A DNA stretch of 32,000 bases, from positions 120,001 to 152,000 of the forward strand of contig CAYHAA010000001.1 of the NCBI GenBank assembly GCA_964354495.1. Reading direction: 5' to 3'. The notes below the pieces were generated by a model. That model saw only the letters and a list, made by a program, of their open reading frames with translations. It did not search any database and had not been told where the DNA came from. This DNA is from an uncultured archaeon. GTDB taxonomy: Archaea; Asgardarchaeota; Thorarchaeia; Thorarchaeales; Thorarchaeaceae. Position numbers and translations under genes: made by a program. Positions 7,251 to 22,406 of this stretch are shown piece by piece. Numbering within the stretch: the stretch's first letter is position 1; each line of letters begins with the position of its first letter.

Positions 7251-7298
7251 GTAACATTCTTTAGACATTAGCTGGGGGGAACATCCGAGGACTCATTG

Positions 7299-8969
7299 AT
7301 GTCATTACAAGAACTGCAAGAAGAGGAATTCTCAATACACTGGATTCGAGATGTTGTGAATAAAGTCTTGGAACGTGATGTTGACACTTACCTCATCTCA
7401 TCTGGCAAGAGCCCGAGTGGCAGCATCCATATTGGTTTTGTCCGTGAATTGATAATATGTGATGTCATTAAACGCGAACTGAAACGGATGGGAAAGAATG
7501 CCAAAACTGTCTTTGTTGTCGATGACTTTGATCCTTTGCGCTCTTTGCCTCCCTCTGCGGGTATTCCTCTTGAGACCTGGATTGGCCTTCCATACTCTGA
7601 CATCCCTGATGAGTTTGGATGCTGTGACAGCTTCGGAGATCACTGGGCAAACGAGCTTATCGAAACATTTCCTTCCTTCGGAGTCGACCCCGACATCGTA
7701 TGGACTCACAAGTTGTACGAAACTCCTGAGATGATTGACGTTGTCAGAACCTGCCTTCGAGAGACCAAAACAATACGTAAGATAATGGTCGAATTCGTTG
7801 CAAGCGACTTCGAGGAGGAACAGTCAGAGGAATACACGACCTCAATGAAAGATTGGTATCCCGCATCAGTTGTCTGCCCTGAATGTGGAAGATTGCAGTC
7901 CGGTGTAAAAGGCCAGATCTCGCCAAACCGTATCACTAGCTACAATCCGAAAAAGGATACTGTGACTTTTGAATGCAAATCCTGCGGCACCTCAGGAGAG
8001 TTTCCACTGACTGAAGTTCGTGTCAAACTCGTCTGGCGTGTTGACTGGCCGGCGAAATGGTACGTTCTGGGAGTGACATGCGAGCCTGCAGGCAAAGACC
8101 ATGCAGTAAAGGGTGGTTCATACGATACTGGGGTTGAGGTCTCTCGACGAGTCTTCAAATGGCCTGGTCCCGTGAAGGTTGCTTATGAGTGGGTTCGTAT
8201 TGGGGGCAGGGACATGAGCACCTCTCAAGGGATTGTCTTCACGCCGCGTTCTTGGTTGGAAATCGCTCCGCCTGAACTGTACCGGTATCTGATGCTAAAG
8301 ACAGATCTCTCTCGTGCCATAAACATCCAACCCGATAGGATTCCTGAACTCATTGATGAGTATGAACGGTTTGAGAGGGTCTACTATGGCATTGAAGATG
8401 CTACTGCAGAAAAGAGGGAGCTAGCCAGACTTCTCTATCCTCTCTGTGTCACCGGACCCCTGCACGAGCAGTACATTCCGAAACTCTCATTCAGATTCGC
8501 AGTAATGACCTCCCAGATGGTCGACCTACTTGGTATCTCGGCAGTCATGAGTAGATGCGAACAGGTCTTGAAAAAACAATACGGACTTGAGGTCGTTCCT
8601 CCAGAGGCGAAAGCGCTGATTCAAACCCGTCTGAACATGGCTAAGAATTGGGCTCTAGAGTTTGGTTCGGAGAGTGACCGAATAGAGGTCACCGAGAAGG
8701 TTCCCAAAGAGGTCACCGAGAGCTTGACAGCAGATGATAAGAAATTCCTGTCAGCGATGCTTTCAGTCCTTGAGGGTGATGAGCTCGATGATGAGACCTT
8801 ACAGAGTCAAGTCTTTGAACAGGCTAGAAATGTTGGCCTTAAGGAGAAACGTGCATTTGTAGTGATGTACAGAGTCCTTATCGCACGGAAATTCGGCCCA
8901 CGACTAGGTTCATTTCTGAACCTTCTTGGGTATGATTGGGTAGCAAAAAGGATTCGAAGCATTCTCTGA
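7299..8969 (+). CDS. lysS: Lysyl-tRNA synthetase, class I
   Basis: SGKSPSGSIHIG (HIGH), DDFDPLR, Zn motifs CPECG/CKSCG, WRVDWPAKW, EPAGKDH, KMSKS-like DMSTSQG, C-terminal GPRLGSF. Confidence 0.97.
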   Translation: MSLQELQEEEFSIHWIRDVVNKVLERDVDTYLISSGKSPSGSIHIGFVRELIICDVIKRELKRMGKNAKTVFVVDDFDPLRSLPPSAGIPLETWIGLPYSDIPDEFGCCDSFGDHWANELIETFPSFGVDPDIVWTHKLYETPEMIDVVRTCLRETKTIRKIMVEFVASDFEEEQSEEYTTSMKDWYPASVVCPECGRLQSGVKGQISPNRITSYNPKKDTVTFECKSCGTSGEFPLTEVRVKLVWRVDWPAKWYVLGVTCEPAGKDHAVKGGSYDTGVEVSRRVFKWPGPVKVAYEWVRIGGRDMSTSQGIVFTPRSWLEIAPPELYRYLMLKTDLSRAINIQPDRIPELIDEYERFERVYYGIEDATAEKRELARLLYPLCVTGPLHEQYIPKLSFRFAVMTSQMVDLLGISAVMSRCEQVLKKQYGLEVVPPEAKALIQTRLNMAKNWALEFGSESDRIEVTEKVPKEVTESLTADDKKFLSAMLSVLEGDELDDETLQSQVFEQARNVGLKEKRAFVVMYRVLIARKFGPRLGSFLNLLGYDWVAKRIRSIL

Positions 8970-9050: not shown

Positions 9051-9776
9051 ATGAGAACCATGCTTGGAAGCCTCAGGGAACGATACCAGCGTCTTATGAT
9101 GCCAGTCGGCCGAGTCATTGCCAAGACAGGCATCACACCCAACATAATCACTGGTCTCACTCTAGTCATTGCATTAATCACTGCATGGATATTCTATCAG
9201 GGATACCTTCTCCTCGGTCTACTGTTTCTATTACTGGCAGTCGTTATGGACATGTTTGATGGGGCTGTCGCCCGAGCTGCAGGTCTTTCATCAAAATTCG
9301 GAGCGACCTTTGACCACGTTCTAGATCGCTATGCGGAGTATCTCTTCATGCTTGGGCTCATGATGGGGCCGGTCGCAGTCACATGGCCATATTCCCTTGG
9401 TGGCAGCTTCATACCATGGTTCTGGGGCTTTTTCGCACTGTTTGGCATGGTAATGGCAAGTTTCACCCGGGCAAAAGCTGAGTCTGTAGGCGGGTTGAAG
9501 AGTTGTACAGTGGGAATCGCAGAGCGCCAGGAGAAGTTGCTACTGCAGATCGTGGGTATTCTTCTGCTTGCAATTCCCTCAACTAACATCTGGATTGATC
9601 TGCTGACACCGGTGCCTCCACTCCTGAATCTCTTTGTGGCTCTGAACATCACCAACATTCTGACTCTCTGCATTGTTATTGTTGGGATTCTCTCTCATAT
9701 TACGGTAGTACAGAGACTTCTCTATGCCCACAAAATGATTCTTGCATCGGAATCGGGTGACAGACCAGATGTATGA
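9051..9776 (+). CDS. pgsA: CDP-alcohol phosphatidyltransferase, probable archaetidylinositol phosphate synthase
   Basis: Signature DMFDGAVAR...SSKFGATFDHVLDRYAE; GITPNIIT; SFTRAKAES...VGIAERQEKL as in archaeal AIPS. Alternative start at 9060. Confidence 0.85.
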   Translation: MRTMLGSLRERYQRLMMPVGRVIAKTGITPNIITGLTLVIALITAWIFYQGYLLLGLLFLLLAVVMDMFDGAVARAAGLSSKFGATFDHVLDRYAEYLFMLGLMMGPVAVTWPYSLGGSFIPWFWGFFALFGMVMASFTRAKAESVGGLKSCTVGIAERQEKLLLQIVGILLLAIPSTNIWIDLLTPVPPLLNLFVALNITNILTLCIVIVGILSHITVVQRLLYAHKMILASESGDRPDV

Positions 9777-10683
9777 CATTGTTGTGATTGGTAGTCCTTC
9801 CTTTGACAGATTTGTAAGGGGGTCTGTTTCAGACAATGGGCGTTCTCTATCTGGTCCTGCTGCATATAGCGCAAGAAGCGCAGTTCAGTTAGGTATTCAA
9901 AACATGGCAATCGTCGGGTTTCTCAGTGAACAATACCGCGACCAATTTGCTGCCCAACTTGATGAGTTGGACATTCTGGAATATTATCCGATTAACTCAC
10001 CTGAGACCGGTGGTTTTGAGATAGAGTATAATGGTGGCGCTGATGCTTCCGTCGTCTCTGTTCTCGGAGTGCTCAAGTCAATTGGAATACGGGACATTCC
10101 TGATGAGTTCCTGTCTGCACGTATTATTCTTCTGACCCCGCTTCTACAGGAAATTGGTGCAGAGCTAATCGAATGGATATGCAACTCGTCTGATGCCACG
10201 ATTCTGCTTGATCCTCAGCTACGCGATGCTGGAGTCGATATGAAACCTAGAAACACATCTGTGCTAAATGTAATTGAAAAGACATGTTCTTTCTTGGACT
10301 TCATCAAACCAAATGAGCTTGAGGCATCACTCATCACTGGTGAAACGGACATGTATCTTGCCGCTGAACTGCTTGTCGAGTCCCTAGCGGACAGCTGCAT
10401 CATAACTATGGGCAAGAATGGTAGTTTCATCTATGACGGACATAGTTTCGTGGTTGTTCCAACGTATCCGACTCAGCCAAAAGACACTCTTGAAGCAGGT
10501 GCCACATACCTCGGCGGATTTGCATCTGGCCTCTTGGAAGGATGGAACCTTGCTGATTGTGGTGCTCTGGGAGCGGCAGCAGCAAGCCAAAGAATTGAGA
10601 ATTCAGGTCTGGACTTCAGTGTTAATCGCTCTGAAGTCGAGAAAAGGGCAGCACAGATTGCTCATGATATATTGATTAAATAG
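9769..10683 (+). CDS. PfkB/ribokinase-family protein with degenerate catalytic motif
   Basis: IVVIG..SFD start, FIKPNELEA, IITMGKNGS. The PfkB signature-2 region reads DTLEAGATYLGGF instead of DTxGAGDxFxxGF. Start overlaps the upstream stop by 8 nt. Confidence 0.85.
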   Translation: MYDIVVIGSPSFDRFVRGSVSDNGRSLSGPAAYSARSAVQLGIQNMAIVGFLSEQYRDQFAAQLDELDILEYYPINSPETGGFEIEYNGGADASVVSVLGVLKSIGIRDIPDEFLSARIILLTPLLQEIGAELIEWICNSSDATILLDPQLRDAGVDMKPRNTSVLNVIEKTCSFLDFIKPNELEASLITGETDMYLAAELLVESLADSCIITMGKNGSFIYDGHSFVVVPTYPTQPKDTLEAGATYLGGFASGLLEGWNLADCGALGAAAASQRIENSGLDFSVNRSEVEKRAAQIAHDILIK

Positions 10684-10691
10684 ACATCGAC

Positions 10692-11051
10692 CTAGTCCGT
10701 CTTGTCGAATACCAAGGAGAGGGTCTTTAGAAGGAAAGCCTTCGCATCAGACATTGCAGCCCTTCCTTTTTCTGTAATGGCATAGTACTTTCGTGGCGAG
10801 TCATCAGGCTGTTGTTCTTCAATGAGCCCATCATTAATCAGACGATAGATGATGGCGTAGCCACTGACTGTGGCGGGTGAGAAACCGAATCTCTCACGAA
10901 TAAGCCGCTTGATCTCATATCCGTAGTGAGGTTTCTCTTGAAGAAGCCGTAGAATGTACATCCACAGCATCTCCTTGGTAAGCTTGCTCACAAGTCTGTT
11001 GATGGCCTTTAGCTTGTTTCCTTCACCTGATTGTTGACCCTCCGTCATCAT
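10692..11051 (-). CDS. PadR-family transcriptional regulator
   Basis: LWMYILRLLQEKPHYGYEIKRLI...SPATVSGYAIIYRLINDGLI...RKYYAITEKG. Start ATGATGA overlaps the trmY stop. Confidence 0.92.
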   Translation of the reverse strand: MMTEGQQSGEGNKLKAINRLVSKLTKEMLWMYILRLLQEKPHYGYEIKRLIRERFGFSPATVSGYAIIYRLINDGLIEEQQPDDSPRKYYAITEKGRAAMSDAKAFLLKTLSLVFDKTD

Positions 11052-11623
11052 TTGACCATCCTTTCGAATTTTGAGATAACTGAAGCGACGCAATGACTGC
11101 TGAGATAGCTTGTTTTTCCCAGTGATATTCTCGGCAGGCCATGCTTCGATACGAGCTCTTCTGCGCGGGAATCATAGCCCCTATGGTCTCCGAGCATAAA
11201 ACTATTCTGCGTTCCAGAAACCTGTATCTTGCAGTCCTTAAAGTATCTTCCTTCTTCATGAAGTACCCACAGTTGCGATCTTGATGGTTGAGTGAGGTTT
11301 CTAATCATGGACTCGAGATTGTCTTGTGTGACCCTGACATAGTCCGGTGGGTCTCCCCGTAATGCATTCTTGACAACCATTGCCCATCCTTGTTCGCCTA
11401 TTGGCATTCTCTCATTCGGTGTCTGGAAGGTCAGAAGGACTTGGTCACTGAAAAGGGCACTGAACTCAAGCTGGCTAAGAGGCCAATCAGTAGGACCCCA
11501 GTCAAAGCATGCTGCCAAGTCACGACATAAAACATCAACGCGCTTGCCTATTCCCGGTAGGTCTCTGAGAGGAAAATCGTCCGAAGGAGGAACCGCTGGC
11601 AGAAGCTGAATGAATCTCAGCAT
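11048..11623 (-). CDS. trmY: tRNA (pseudouridine-54-N1)-methyltransferase (SPOUT, DUF358)
   Basis: DFPLRDLPG.GKRVDVLCR; LHEEG; FMLGDHRG; ISLGKTSYLSSHCV. Start re-called to ATG 11623. Confidence 0.85.
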   Translation of the reverse strand: MLRFIQLLPAVPPSDDFPLRDLPGIGKRVDVLCRDLAACFDWGPTDWPLSQLEFSALFSDQVLLTFQTPNERMPIGEQGWAMVVKNALRGDPPDYVRVTQDNLESMIRNLTQPSRSQLWVLHEEGRYFKDCKIQVSGTQNSFMLGDHRGYDSRAEELVSKHGLPRISLGKTSYLSSHCVASVISKFERMVK

Positions 11624-11659
11624 AGTGGGTCTAGAGTCGAATTGCATATGGCAAACCTG

Positions 11660-12760
11660 CTAGCCAGTCTTTTTCTTCGCCCAGTAGGGTGTGACGGTTT
11701 CAAGGACCTTGTCGATTATCTCGTCGTTTGATTTCAAAATAAGTGGGTTGCTCTCTCGTTCTATCTGGTCTTCAAGTGCTGGCCTTTGCCTGCCTGCCAG
11801 TCCATCGAGGCTTGCATGGATTGACGGACCGAGTGCGAATGGATTGTAACCACCCTCTAGGACCCATACGGAGCCGAATGCGTTCAATGATTGGACCATC
11901 TTGCTAATCGAGTCACCGAATTCCCAGTAGGTTCTTGAATCAACATCCATATTGCCCACAGGGTCAGCATAGTGTGCGTCATATCCAGCTGAAACCATGA
12001 TGAGTTGAGGCTTGAATGCCTTGAGCGCAGGTTCCAGTACACGTTTGATTGCTGTCTCATAGGAAGCGTCAGGGGATGTTTCAACGAGAGGAACATTGAT
12101 GTTGGTCCCTTTTCCCTCACCATACCCTATCTCTGTATAGTGGCCTAATCCGAAGTTATCATAGTCATACTCGTGAAATGAGATATATTGAACATTCGGA
12201 TTCGTGTAGAAAATCTCGGATGTGCCATTGCCATGATGGTCATCAAAATCGACGATTGAAACGCGGCGAACTCGTTCATCCTGCATGGCATGTTTCGTTG
12301 CGATAGCGACATTGTTGAAGTAGCATAGCCCCGCTGGATCTGAGGTTGTGGCATGGTGACCAGGAGGTCTCATGAGAACAAAAGTGTGCTTGACGTTTCC
12401 TGAAAGTACAACATCAGTTCCCTTCATTGCTCCTCCCACTGCAAGAAGTGCAGTTTGAAAGAGACCCGGACTTGCATAGGCCGACTCTCCGAGTTGACCT
12501 GTTCCAATGTTGGAGAGGATTTCAACACTGTCGACAAGGTATGGCGAGTGGACAAGTAAGACGTCTTTCGTGCTTGCGCGAGGTGCTCTGAGCCTCACTG
12601 TTTGGTTGAGTACTCCACTCTTTTCCAAGTACCTCTCAGCCATCTGGTATCGTAATGGATTCTCGAAAGACTCAAGGTGTGGTTTTGGGAATGGCATCTG
12701 ATGCATGCTTGCCTTGGGGTGGGAGATGAATGCGATTTTATTCTCGGGCACATCAATCAC
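11660..12760 (-). CDS. Histone deacetylase / acetylpolyamine amidohydrolase family Zn-dependent deacylase
   Basis: HLESFENPLR, RPPGHHA, GLCYFNN, DFDDHHGNGT, SAGYDAHYADPVG, LEGGY. Confidence 0.95.
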   Translation of the reverse strand: MIDVPENKIAFISHPKASMHQMPFPKPHLESFENPLRYQMAERYLEKSGVLNQTVRLRAPRASTKDVLLVHSPYLVDSVEILSNIGTGQLGESAYASPGLFQTALLAVGGAMKGTDVVLSGNVKHTFVLMRPPGHHATTSDPAGLCYFNNVAIATKHAMQDERVRRVSIVDFDDHHGNGTSEIFYTNPNVQYISFHEYDYDNFGLGHYTEIGYGEGKGTNINVPLVETSPDASYETAIKRVLEPALKAFKPQLIMVSAGYDAHYADPVGNMDVDSRTYWEFGDSISKMVQSLNAFGSVWVLEGGYNPFALGPSIHASLDGLAGRQRPALEDQIERESNPLILKSNDEIIDKVLETVTPYWAKKKTG

Positions 12761-21317: not shown

Positions 21318-22406
21318 TCAGCGATCTCTCTTACCCTCGATGAACTCATCGACTCTCTTCCTGCCTTCAAAATCATCAATCTGATATCTTGGGTGCTTGA
21401 AGCTGTACGAGCAAATGCTTGATAGCTCTCCGCCGATTCCGCGGTCCATTGCTATCTTGACAGCTCTGACAACATCGATGATCACGCCAGCGCTGTTTGG
21501 TGAGTCCTCTACTGAGAGCTTTAGGTCGAGGTCAATCGGTTGGTTGCCAAATGACCTTGATCTCATGCTGATGTAGCAGATCTTATTGTCTCCCAAGAAA
21601 GGTACATAGTCGCTGGGTCCAATCTTGGTTGGCAGTTCATAGTCTACGCAGCTGGTCACAGCTTCCGTCTTACTTATTCTCTTTGAGCTCAGCCTATTTT
21701 CAACCTGCATGTTCTCAAAGTCGGTATTGCCTCCGATGTTCAGCTGATAGGTGTTCTCAATAATGAGTCCTCTCTGGTCGAACAGCTGTGCAAGTACTCT
21801 GTGGAGGATTGTGGCACCCAGCTGGCTCTTGATGTCATCGCCTGCACATGGTATGCCCTTCTTCGCGAATGCCTGCTCGATTGGCGATTTGGGATCTGAA
21901 ACAACGAACTCAGGTATTGCATTGACATAGCCTATTTCCGCTTCCAACGCAGCACGAGCATAGATTCTCGTGCTTTTGGCACTGCCTACTGGCAGGTACG
22001 TGATGAACACATCTGCTTTGGACTTCCTAAGTTCTTCAACCACGTCGACTGGTTCAATCTCTTTTTCATCGTATGTGAAGAAGGACTCCTTCATATGCGG
22101 AGCGACCCCATCAGAGATAGGACCTGGAAGAACCTTGACTCCTGTCTTTGGTACATCACGGGCGTAGATTACGCAGCAATTTGGTTCTGCCCACATAGCA
22201 TCAGCAATGTCTAGACCGATCTTCTTTCTATTGACGTCAAAGGCTGCAACATACTTGAAGTCTCTCGGGAAGTAACCACCGAAATCTACATGCATCAACC
22301 CCGGCACCTCGTCTTCCGCCTTTGCGTTGCGGTAGAAGTGTGTTCCTTGGATGAGTGCCGATGCACAGTTACCAAGTCCGGCGATTGCTACACGAATGTT
22401 TCCCAT
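21318..22406 (-). CDS. ino1: myo-inositol-1-phosphate synthase
   Basis: RVAIAGLGNCAS, VAAFDV, YLPVGS, GDDIKSQLGAT, QLNIGGNTDF, SKRISKT, EDSPNSAG. Confidence 0.97.
   Translation of the reverse strand: MGNIRVAIAGLGNCASALIQGTHFYRNAKAEDEVPGLMHVDFGGYFPRDFKYVAAFDVNRKKIGLDIADAMWAEPNCCVIYARDVPKTGVKVLPGPISDGVAPHMKESFFTYDEKEIEPVDVVEELRKSKADVFITYLPVGSAKSTRIYARAALEAEIGYVNAIPEFVVSDPKSPIEQAFAKKGIPCAGDDIKSQLGATILHRVLAQLFDQRGLIIENTYQLNIGGNTDFENMQVENRLSSKRISKTEAVTSCVDYELPTKIGPSDYVPFLGDNKICYISMRSRSFGNQPIDLDLKLSVEDSPNSAGVIIDVVRAVKIAMDRGIGGELSSICSYSFKHPRYQIDDFEGRKRVDEFIEGKRDR

Follow-up and report, generated by a model that had tools for sequence, protein, structure and literature searches.

Archaetidylinositol phosphate synthase (AIPS) converts CDP-archaeol and 1L-myo-inositol-1-phosphate into archaetidylinositol phosphate (AIP). 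A quite different story is that of the plant plastid fructokinase-like proteins FLN1 and FLN2, in which the PfkB fold has been kept for the non-catalytic binding of a partner after the loss of the kinase residues. Both themes may come together in the locus described here: a stretch of 32,000 nucleotides (hereafter the window; GenBank assembly GCA_964354495.1, contig CAYHAA010000001.1, positions 120,001 to 152,000) that is part of a 3.3-Mb genome of an uncultured archaeon of the Asgard class Thorarchaeia. Here, an AIPS-like gene overlaps the gene of a PfkB-fold protein from which the catalytic Asp has disappeared. In competent enzymes of the PfkB/ribokinase family this Asp is the last residue of the GXGD motif, and the two Gly residues of the motif recognize the phosphates of the donor (PMC5931981). 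The window protein is a putative pseudoenzyme derivative within an orthogroup that is undescribed, yet recognizably PfkB; on balance, it is probably a catalytically dead member kept for a non-catalytic, ligand-binding role as the partner of AIPS.

Starting from the protein itself, the open reading frame matches the Pfam PfkB model PF00294 with 82.5 bits (cut-off 25.8). The sequence-only reading of this locus had noticed that the GAGD motif is replaced by EAGA, that the start codon overlaps the stop of the CDP-alcohol transferase gene by 8 nt, and that the ino1 gene lies in the same window, and all three observations hold (Table 1). The codons gac act ctt gaa gca ggt gcc encode D239-T-L-E242-A-G-A245, and HMMER aligns this stretch with DTIGAGD of Escherichia coli YdjH, DPTGAGD of MJ0406, and DTTAAGD of the Thermotoga ribokinase, so that A245 occupies the position of the catalytic Asp and E242 that of the first Gly of GXGD. 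The same reading had taken the rest of the fold to be intact. This is true of the NELE motif, of the ITMGKNG element, of the uninterrupted frame, and of the AlphaFold model, which is of high confidence (predicted local distance difference test 92.9, predicted template modeling score 0.93; 91 homologues used); it is not true of the substrate site, where Y33 stands in place of Asn, nor of 25 positions that are invariant in the canonical relatives and degraded here. Of the ribokinase residues D16, N46, and E143, whose equivalents we take to be D13, N33, and E128 from a sequence alignment and the 1RKD structure, not from a superposition, the window protein has D13 and E128, whereas the Tyr occupies position 33.

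When the model is compared with solved structures by Foldseek, ribokinases come first (probability 1.00, E = 3e-19, TM 0.77-0.80), with the inositol kinases TK2285 at rank 5 and TM0415 at ranks 19-20. As these two stand amid many PfkB enzymes, the fold does not discriminate the substrate. The window protein is, then, a structural member of the PfkB/ribokinase family, but with E242-A-G-A245 in the place of GXGD it probably does not belong to the competent enzymes of the class.

How general is this condition among the relatives of the window organism? Whole-genome searches at E <= 1e-20 gave hits in 50 of 87 Thorarchaeia genomes, and 47 loci were examined. In all 47, AIPS lies directly upstream on the same strand, and AIPS itself is found in all 17 genera. 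The junction is just as stable: the overlap measures 8 nt in 37 of the 47 loci, the octamer ATGTATGA is identical in 35, and a Shine-Dalgarno-like motif is present in 31, a GGTGA/GGAGA-type sequence standing at equal distance within the genus of the window. Across the 47 loci, no frameshift or stop interrupts the PfkB gene. Within the genus, 22 of 27 genomes still have the orthologue; of the five without a hit, two also have no detectable AIPS, and in two others AIPS abuts the end of a contig. The linkage of the orthologues to AIPS, on which the sequence-only reading had staked its proposal, therefore extends to every Thorarchaeial locus examined and, as described below, well beyond the class.

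The catalytic motif, for its part, is anything but stable. About 115 homologous protein clusters were collected, nearly all labeled Thorarchaeota and 31-89% identical to the window protein; most of them read GAGA, GAGS, EAGA, DASS, or similar, while GAGD occurs only in a few close relatives and in the more distant ones. In the 21 genomes of the genus (g1) scored for the motif, position 245 is Ala in 10, Ser in 7, Pro in 1, and Asp in 3, so that Asp has been lost in 18, and the codons at this position can be ordered by single steps, from GAY via GCN to TCN or CCT. The EAGA of the window is found again, spelled by other Ala and Gly codons, in one more member of the genus (G030, 85% identity) and also in the metagenome proteins P0003 and P0004; a sequencing error or the decay of a single genome was rejected on account of the different codons in that second genome. 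Elsewhere in the class, the catalytic Asp is gone in 5 of 5 sequences of genus g2, which read WTGA, WAGA, or WTGS, and in genus g4, with the motif YTDS; in g4 and g9 the NxxE motif is destroyed as well. The sequence-only reading had named GAGD in close orthologues as a sign of error or recent decay. Such orthologues do exist, in three genomes of the genus, yet the closest ones (85% and 70% identity) are without GAGD, a combination that argues for repeated erosion and not for error or recent decay.

Other positions tell a more nuanced story. In every sequence of the main Thorarchaeial family (f1), including those of the genera that keep GAGD, at least one of the substrate ligands D13 and N33 has been replaced; within the genus of the window, position 13 is H, D, L, or F. 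E128 is unchanged throughout f1. The phosphate-site motifs are well kept in the genus, with N182 in 20, E185 in 19, T213 and G218 in 21, and G244 in 20 of the 21 genomes. Moreover, the 25 canonical-invariant positions lost in f1 are accompanied by about a dozen that are invariant only there, among them E71, E113, F114, L115, E132, W136, E200, V203, and F227.

Phylogeny and substitution rates complete this picture. With the motif columns left out of the alignment and the canonical sequences as the root, the tree recovers f1 as a clade with support 100 on a long stem (length 0.58), and at least 7 changes between Asp and non-Asp states are needed on it. By the pairwise Nei-Gojobori method, the ratio of nonsynonymous to synonymous substitution rates (dN/dS) of the PfkB gene is 0.06-0.16 in the Asp-less clades, a range that holds at dS up to and above 1, and 0.11-0.18 in the Thorarchaeial clades that bear the Asp; AIPS gives 0.04-0.17 in the same pairs. 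The divergence of PfkB relative to that of AIPS is about 2.3 within f1 and about 1.0 among canonical pairs. From the rate ratio and the low dN/dS together, it follows that constraint was reduced or redirected at the base of f1 and is nevertheless still strong.

The canonical sequences used as a reference form a family that reaches far beyond Thorarchaeia. A profile search over 400 Asgard genomes returned high-scoring orthologues in six families (f24-f29), and in 17 of their 18 loci an AIPS-like gene stands alongside. AIPS precedes PfkB in f28 and f29 and comes second in f24, f26, and f27, with stop and start often overlapping or abutting. Two lower-scoring hits (families f30 and f19) have no AIPS neighbor and are TK2285-like in appearance. 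A further scan, with the canonical-type alignment and one genome per prokaryotic species, identified f26 as Njordarchaeota and f28 as Hodarchaeota, and added relatives of 37-47% identity in Bathyarchaeia, in metagenome-assembled genomes (MAGs) of Methanomicrobia and Thermococci, in Methanomethylicota, in one Myxococcota MAG, and in many Chloroflexota, i.e., Chloroflexus, Roseiflexaceae, Oscillochloris, Kouleothrix, and Anaerolineae. In about 48 of the 53 best loci from other phyla, a homologue of AIPS or PIPS is immediately adjacent. These partners match the AIPS model best, with 145-166 bits, and the bacterial ones do so too (145 bits against 107 for PIPS). Of these pairs (loci L094-L146), those of Chloroflexus sp. 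MS-G (L109, 2986-4599) and of a Bathyarchaeia genome (L126, 2383-3927) may serve as examples.

Conservation within this family is nearly complete. The canonical set comprised 72 sequences, drawn from Asgard families f24-f29, Bathyarchaeia, the Methanomicrobia and Thermococci MAGs, Chloroflexota, Myxococcota, and one Thorarchaeial genus (g17), and ten positions were scored: D13, N33, E128, N182, E185, T213, G218, and those of GxGD. All ten substrate, Mg, and catalytic positions are kept in 70 of the 72, and D245 in every one; the exceptions are a D13N replacement in one Chloroflexota sequence and the g17 row, for which the calls at D13 and N33 conflict between alignments. The motifs GNPVYD, LSGCSTN, GPILxE, (P/A)NExE, VTLAExGS, and DPTG(A/C)GD are near-universal. 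The window protein shares with this group its adjacency and co-orientation with an AIPS-like gene as well as its phylogenetic placement, the Thorarchaeial clade joining the canonical sequences via g17, which is itself canonical in its motifs; it departs from the group in the motifs, which read GSPSFD, LSGPAAY, TPLLQE, NELE, and KDTLEAGA. No NCBIfam equivalog covers the kinase, be it the Thorarchaeial or the canonical members, and among solved structures the uncharacterized 3KD6 of Chlorobium tepidum comes nearest in sequence.

Purifying selection, conserved coupling, retained phosphate-site motifs, and newly invariant residues are the reasons for preferring a non-catalytic, ligand-binding partner of AIPS. 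Four points weigh against this reading. The term dead rests on Asp mutants of other enzymes of the ribokinase family, by analogy with which the window protein would have lost its activity. GAGD survives in three genomes of the genus, so that activity could still matter in some lineages. Genera g3, g7, g8, g10, g14, g15, and g16, as well as parts of g6 and g12, have no PfkB gene between AIPS and the PadR gene; the absence is clean, and the gene is in this sense dispensable. Finally, no fused AIPS-PfkB protein longer than 533 aa was found, which is a weak negative. Where the PfkB gene is missing, the PadR, RNA methyltransferase, and deacetylase genes that come after it in the window stand immediately behind AIPS; the gene has thus been either cleanly deleted or never inserted, and the flanking synteny is preserved.

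Could the protein still be an enzyme? A slow kinase, or one of altered chemistry, would have retained the donor site and adopted a new acceptor in need of no general base, such as a phosphate or a carboxylate, or else a different base. We consider this unlikely, although the well-kept phosphate and Mg motifs of the genus and the low dN/dS are in its favor, and the change of pocket residues before the loss of the Asp, together with the new invariant residues, is what a switch of substrate would be expected to produce. The difficulty is that position 245 varies between A, S, P, and D within a single genus, that different lineages have E, C, F, D, W, or Y at the first Gly, that the neighborhood of the motif offers no conserved residue as a replacement, and that in sister genera the gene and its coupling persist with NxxE or the whole GxGD destroyed. 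Even less can be said for the proposal of the sequence-only reading that E242 acts as the general base, in place of the Asp at 245, of an active inositol-salvage kinase. It is true that the Glu stands three positions ahead of the missing Asp, and that the Gly-to-Glu change recurs in several Asp-less sub-lineages (P0011, P0018, P0047, P0062, P0064, P0069, P0086, and L022), but the Glu occurs in just 3 of the 21 genomes of the genus, which is the reason for disfavoring it, and among the metagenome orthologues it is confined to a minority with a scattered distribution; most Asp-less orthologues keep the Gly and read GAGA or GAGS, others DASS, WTGA, or GAEP. Besides, the site belongs to the anion-hole Gly that recognizes the donor phosphates (PMC5931981), and the substrate-binding Asn is lost from the window protein too, so that this proposal appears very improbable. 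A PPi (pyrophosphate)-dependent kinase was also considered, and was rejected since the window protein is without the RxGRGD motif.

An explanation of another kind is that the gene is a redundant accessory in slow decay: the kinase would be dispensable in Thorarchaeia, and its gene would survive only until it is deleted. Clean losses with flanking synteny in at least 7 genera are in keeping with this, and so are the rate of evolution, about 2.3 times that of the AIPS partner, the independent erosion of the motifs in several lineages, with at least 7 state changes on the tree, and the presence elsewhere in the genome of a TM0415-like PfkB paralogue that could cover the phosphorylation of inositol. 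What makes slow decay rather unlikely, in our opinion, is the strength of selection in the Asp-less lineages (dN/dS 0.06-0.16, with dS reaching 1 and more), along with intact frames in all 47 loci, retention in 22 of the 27 genomes of the genus, the gain of clade-specific invariant residues, and an overlap junction that is conserved exactly. The pseudokinase branch of the sequence-only reading fares better than its Glu counterpart and agrees with the data; the loss of the Asp is common to 18 of 21 genomes of the genus, under purifying selection.

If a non-catalytic partner of AIPS is accepted as the preferred reading, its history might be as follows. The ancestor would have been a widely conserved kinase of the ribokinase family, encoded beside, and usually overlapping, AIPS in archaea or a PIPS-like counterpart in Chloroflexota; by association, an inositol-related compound is the obvious candidate for its substrate. 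At the base of f1, the ligands of the sugar or polyol substrate would have been lost. Later, the catalytic residues would have gone several times independently, the general-base Asp of the genus along the codon path given above, and in some genera the whole gene would have disappeared. The protein of the genus would still be co-translated with AIPS from the conserved ATGTATGA junction; it retains its fold, E128, and the elements that bind phosphate (NxxE, TxGxxG, and A-G), and has gained invariant residues of its own. The most likely role of such a protein would be that of a soluble companion of AIPS, which would bind a nucleotide or a phosphorylated ligand, interact with AIPS, and stabilize, regulate, or feed it at the membrane.

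Table 1. Features of the AIPS-PfkB locus and of the MIPS gene, in window coordinates
Feature	Position (nt)	Strand	Description
AIPS-like CDP-alcohol phosphatidyltransferase	9051-9776	+	241 aa; Pfam PF01066, 55.8 bits
Shine-Dalgarno-like GGGTGA	9756-9761	+	Inside the AIPS 3' end; 7 nt upstream of the PfkB ATG
Start/stop overlap ATGTATGA	9769-9776	+	8 nt; PfkB Met-Tyr and AIPS stop (TGA, 9774-9776)
PfkB/ribokinase-fold protein, putative pseudokinase	9769-10683	+	304 aa; without catalytic Asp; from Pfam, AlphaFold, and Foldseek
L-S-G-P-A-A-Y replacing canonical L-S-G-C-S-T-N	9847-9867	+	Substrate-binding Asn (ribokinase N46 equivalent) to Tyr (Y33)
E128, ribokinase E143 equivalent (sugar ligand)	10150-10152	+	Invariant throughout the family, Thorarchaeia included
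NxxE motif N-E-L-E, N182-E185	10312-10323	+	Mg/phosphate site; retained
D-T-L-E-A-G-A replacing D-P-T-G-A-G-D	10483-10503	+	Catalytic Asp to Ala (GCC); first anion-hole Gly to Glu (GAA)
MIPS (myo-inositol-1-phosphate synthase, ino1)	21318-22406	-	Pfam Inos-1-P_synth, 114.6 bits; not physically linked to the pair

With regard to the partner, the upstream gene is best described as AIPS-like, with a putative activity, on the basis of its best model and of the motif of the CDP-alcohol phosphatidyltransferases, DxxDGxxAR...GxxxDxxxD, which reads D67-M-F-D-G-A-V-A-R...G84-A-T-F-D-H-V-L-D92. Its top NCBIfam model is that of archaetidylinositol phosphate synthase (NF040950, archin_ph_syn) with 135 bits, below the curated equivalog cut-off of 180 bits, followed by PIPS with 102 bits; across Thorarchaeia its identity is 59-90%. 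A second AIPS-like CDP-alcohol transferase is encoded in the same genome (contig C12, 88034-88600), with a score of 115 bits to the AIPS model, also below the cut-off. Thorarchaeial AIPS proteins carry two insertions, of ~12 and ~24 aa (at about residues 107-118 and 179-202), that are missing from the AIPS partners of other phyla. Both occur with or without the PfkB gene, and the second seems better conserved where PfkB is present; no conclusion is drawn from them because the sampling is dominated by one genus.

The MIPS gene, whose product supplies the AIPS substrate de novo, does not belong to the module: it was never found within 2.5-3 kb of the pair in the Thorarchaeial and other Asgard loci searched, for which reason it was rejected as a member, and it lies near the pair in a single locus of another phylum (L173), which is a distant relative. 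MIPS was found in all 10 other pair-bearing genomes tested. A kinase that substitutes for MIPS was thus rejected as well; the kinase does not replace de novo synthesis.

Around the pair, genes for a PadR-family regulator, an S-adenosylmethionine-dependent RNA methyltransferase (PF04013), and proteins of the histone deacetylase family follow on the minus strand (10692-12760), and this block is syntenic across Thorarchaeia, genomes without the PfkB gene included. On the other side, a class I lysyl-tRNA synthetase gene adjoins the pair both in the window (7296-8969) and in the Odin-like genome of family f29 (L079, 4142-5797); this shared neighbor is either the remnant of an older synteny or a coincidence.

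The genome encodes further PfkB proteins. The four other paralogues with an assembled GXGD region keep GAGD or GCGD, and the sixth PF00294 hit is an N-terminal fragment at the end of a contig. For the GCGD paralogue on contig C7 (95067-95945; locus L005, 1456-2364), the best match among solved structures over the full length is TM0415 (E = 6.7e-17), the myo-inositol kinase of Thermotoga, and this paralogue is therefore, by sequence, a candidate for a genuine inositol kinase of this organism; similar second-tier hits occur in most of the Asgard genomes searched. Another PfkB-family open reading frame lies about 1.3 kb before the start of the window (contig C1, 117794-118654; locus L006, 1321-2436), in a frame of about 370 aa with an N-terminal extension, a CGAGD motif, and 51.5 bits to the Pfam PfkB model.

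What do these data mean for inositol lipids at large? Several archaeal phyla and Chloroflexota share a conserved, tight two-gene module made of an inositol-phosphate lipid synthase and a ribokinase-family kinase, and the literature searched holds nothing on an AIPS/PIPS-PfkB pair; neither the review of archaeal lipids PMC9385802 nor a preprint on the inositol lipids of Bacteroidetes mentions a kinase partner. The module suggests that the synthesis of archaetidylinositol or phosphatidylinositol includes a step, or a point of control, that has yet to be described, be it the salvage of inositol, the feeding of substrate, or regulation. A broader proposal, which we put forward tentatively as a possibility short of a likelihood, is that the PfkB protein beside AIPS or PIPS is an unrecognized, widely conserved component of prokaryotic inositol-lipid synthesis that forms a complex with the membrane synthase, and that Thorarchaeia reveal a function independent of the kinase, regulatory or scaffolding, which has outlived catalysis.

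Thorarchaeia offer a natural series, from an active-looking kinase through variants without the substrate and catalytic residues, under purifying selection, to the loss of the gene. Because the neighbor and the translational coupling stay constant throughout, the series is a clean system for asking why a pseudoenzyme is kept. Phosphoinositides are central to the identity of eukaryotic membranes, and the inositol lipids of Asgard archaea are of interest for this reason; the present results show no link to eukaryotic membrane identity.

It remains to place the window protein among the systems already described. With ribokinases and other PfkB kinases (RbsK, 1RKD; TM0960 of Thermotoga maritima, 1VM7; YdjH of E. 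coli, 3H49) it shares the fold, NxxE, the strand and turn that carry TxGxxG, the helix that follows the anion hole, and the Glu equivalent to E143. It differs from them in having EAGA for GXGD, and hence neither the general base nor the first anion-hole Gly, in the Tyr at the N46 equivalent, and in the coupling of its gene to a membrane lipid synthase instead of sugar catabolism.

The myo-inositol kinases TK2285 (3W4S, 4XF6) and PPi-dependent TM0415 (1VK4, 5YSP) have the ribokinase fold in common with it (TMt 0.83-0.84) and are functionally tied to the supply of inositol phosphate. The link to TK2285, the enzyme named in the sequence-only reading, turns out to be weak: the family profile reaches TM0415 at E = 2.5e-21 and TK2285 at E = 4.4e-9, the latter over residues 5-150 only, i.e., the N-terminal half, and such matches are generic and stand behind those to ribokinases. 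A phmmer comparison of the window protein with TK2285 gives nothing at E <= 0.01, and the specific sequence relationship that would mark a myo-inositol 3-kinase of the TK2285 type is missing.

The pseudokinases FLN1 and FLN2 belong to an unrelated lineage, and their partner is the plastid RNA polymerase complex. There is, finally, the canonical AIPS/PIPS-linked PfkB orthogroup of the Njord-, Hod-, and Odin-like Asgard archaea, Bathyarchaeia, Chloroflexus, the relatives of Roseiflexus, Oscillochloris, and Anaerolineae, in which no characterized member was found. Here the relationship is one of direct ancestry, with the Thorarchaeial clade nesting beside it. The two have in common the AIPS-like neighbor, often with overlapping start and stop, and a length of about 300 aa; what sets the main Thorarchaeial family apart is the loss of the 25 invariant positions and a pace of evolution, relative to AIPS, about 2.3 times faster.

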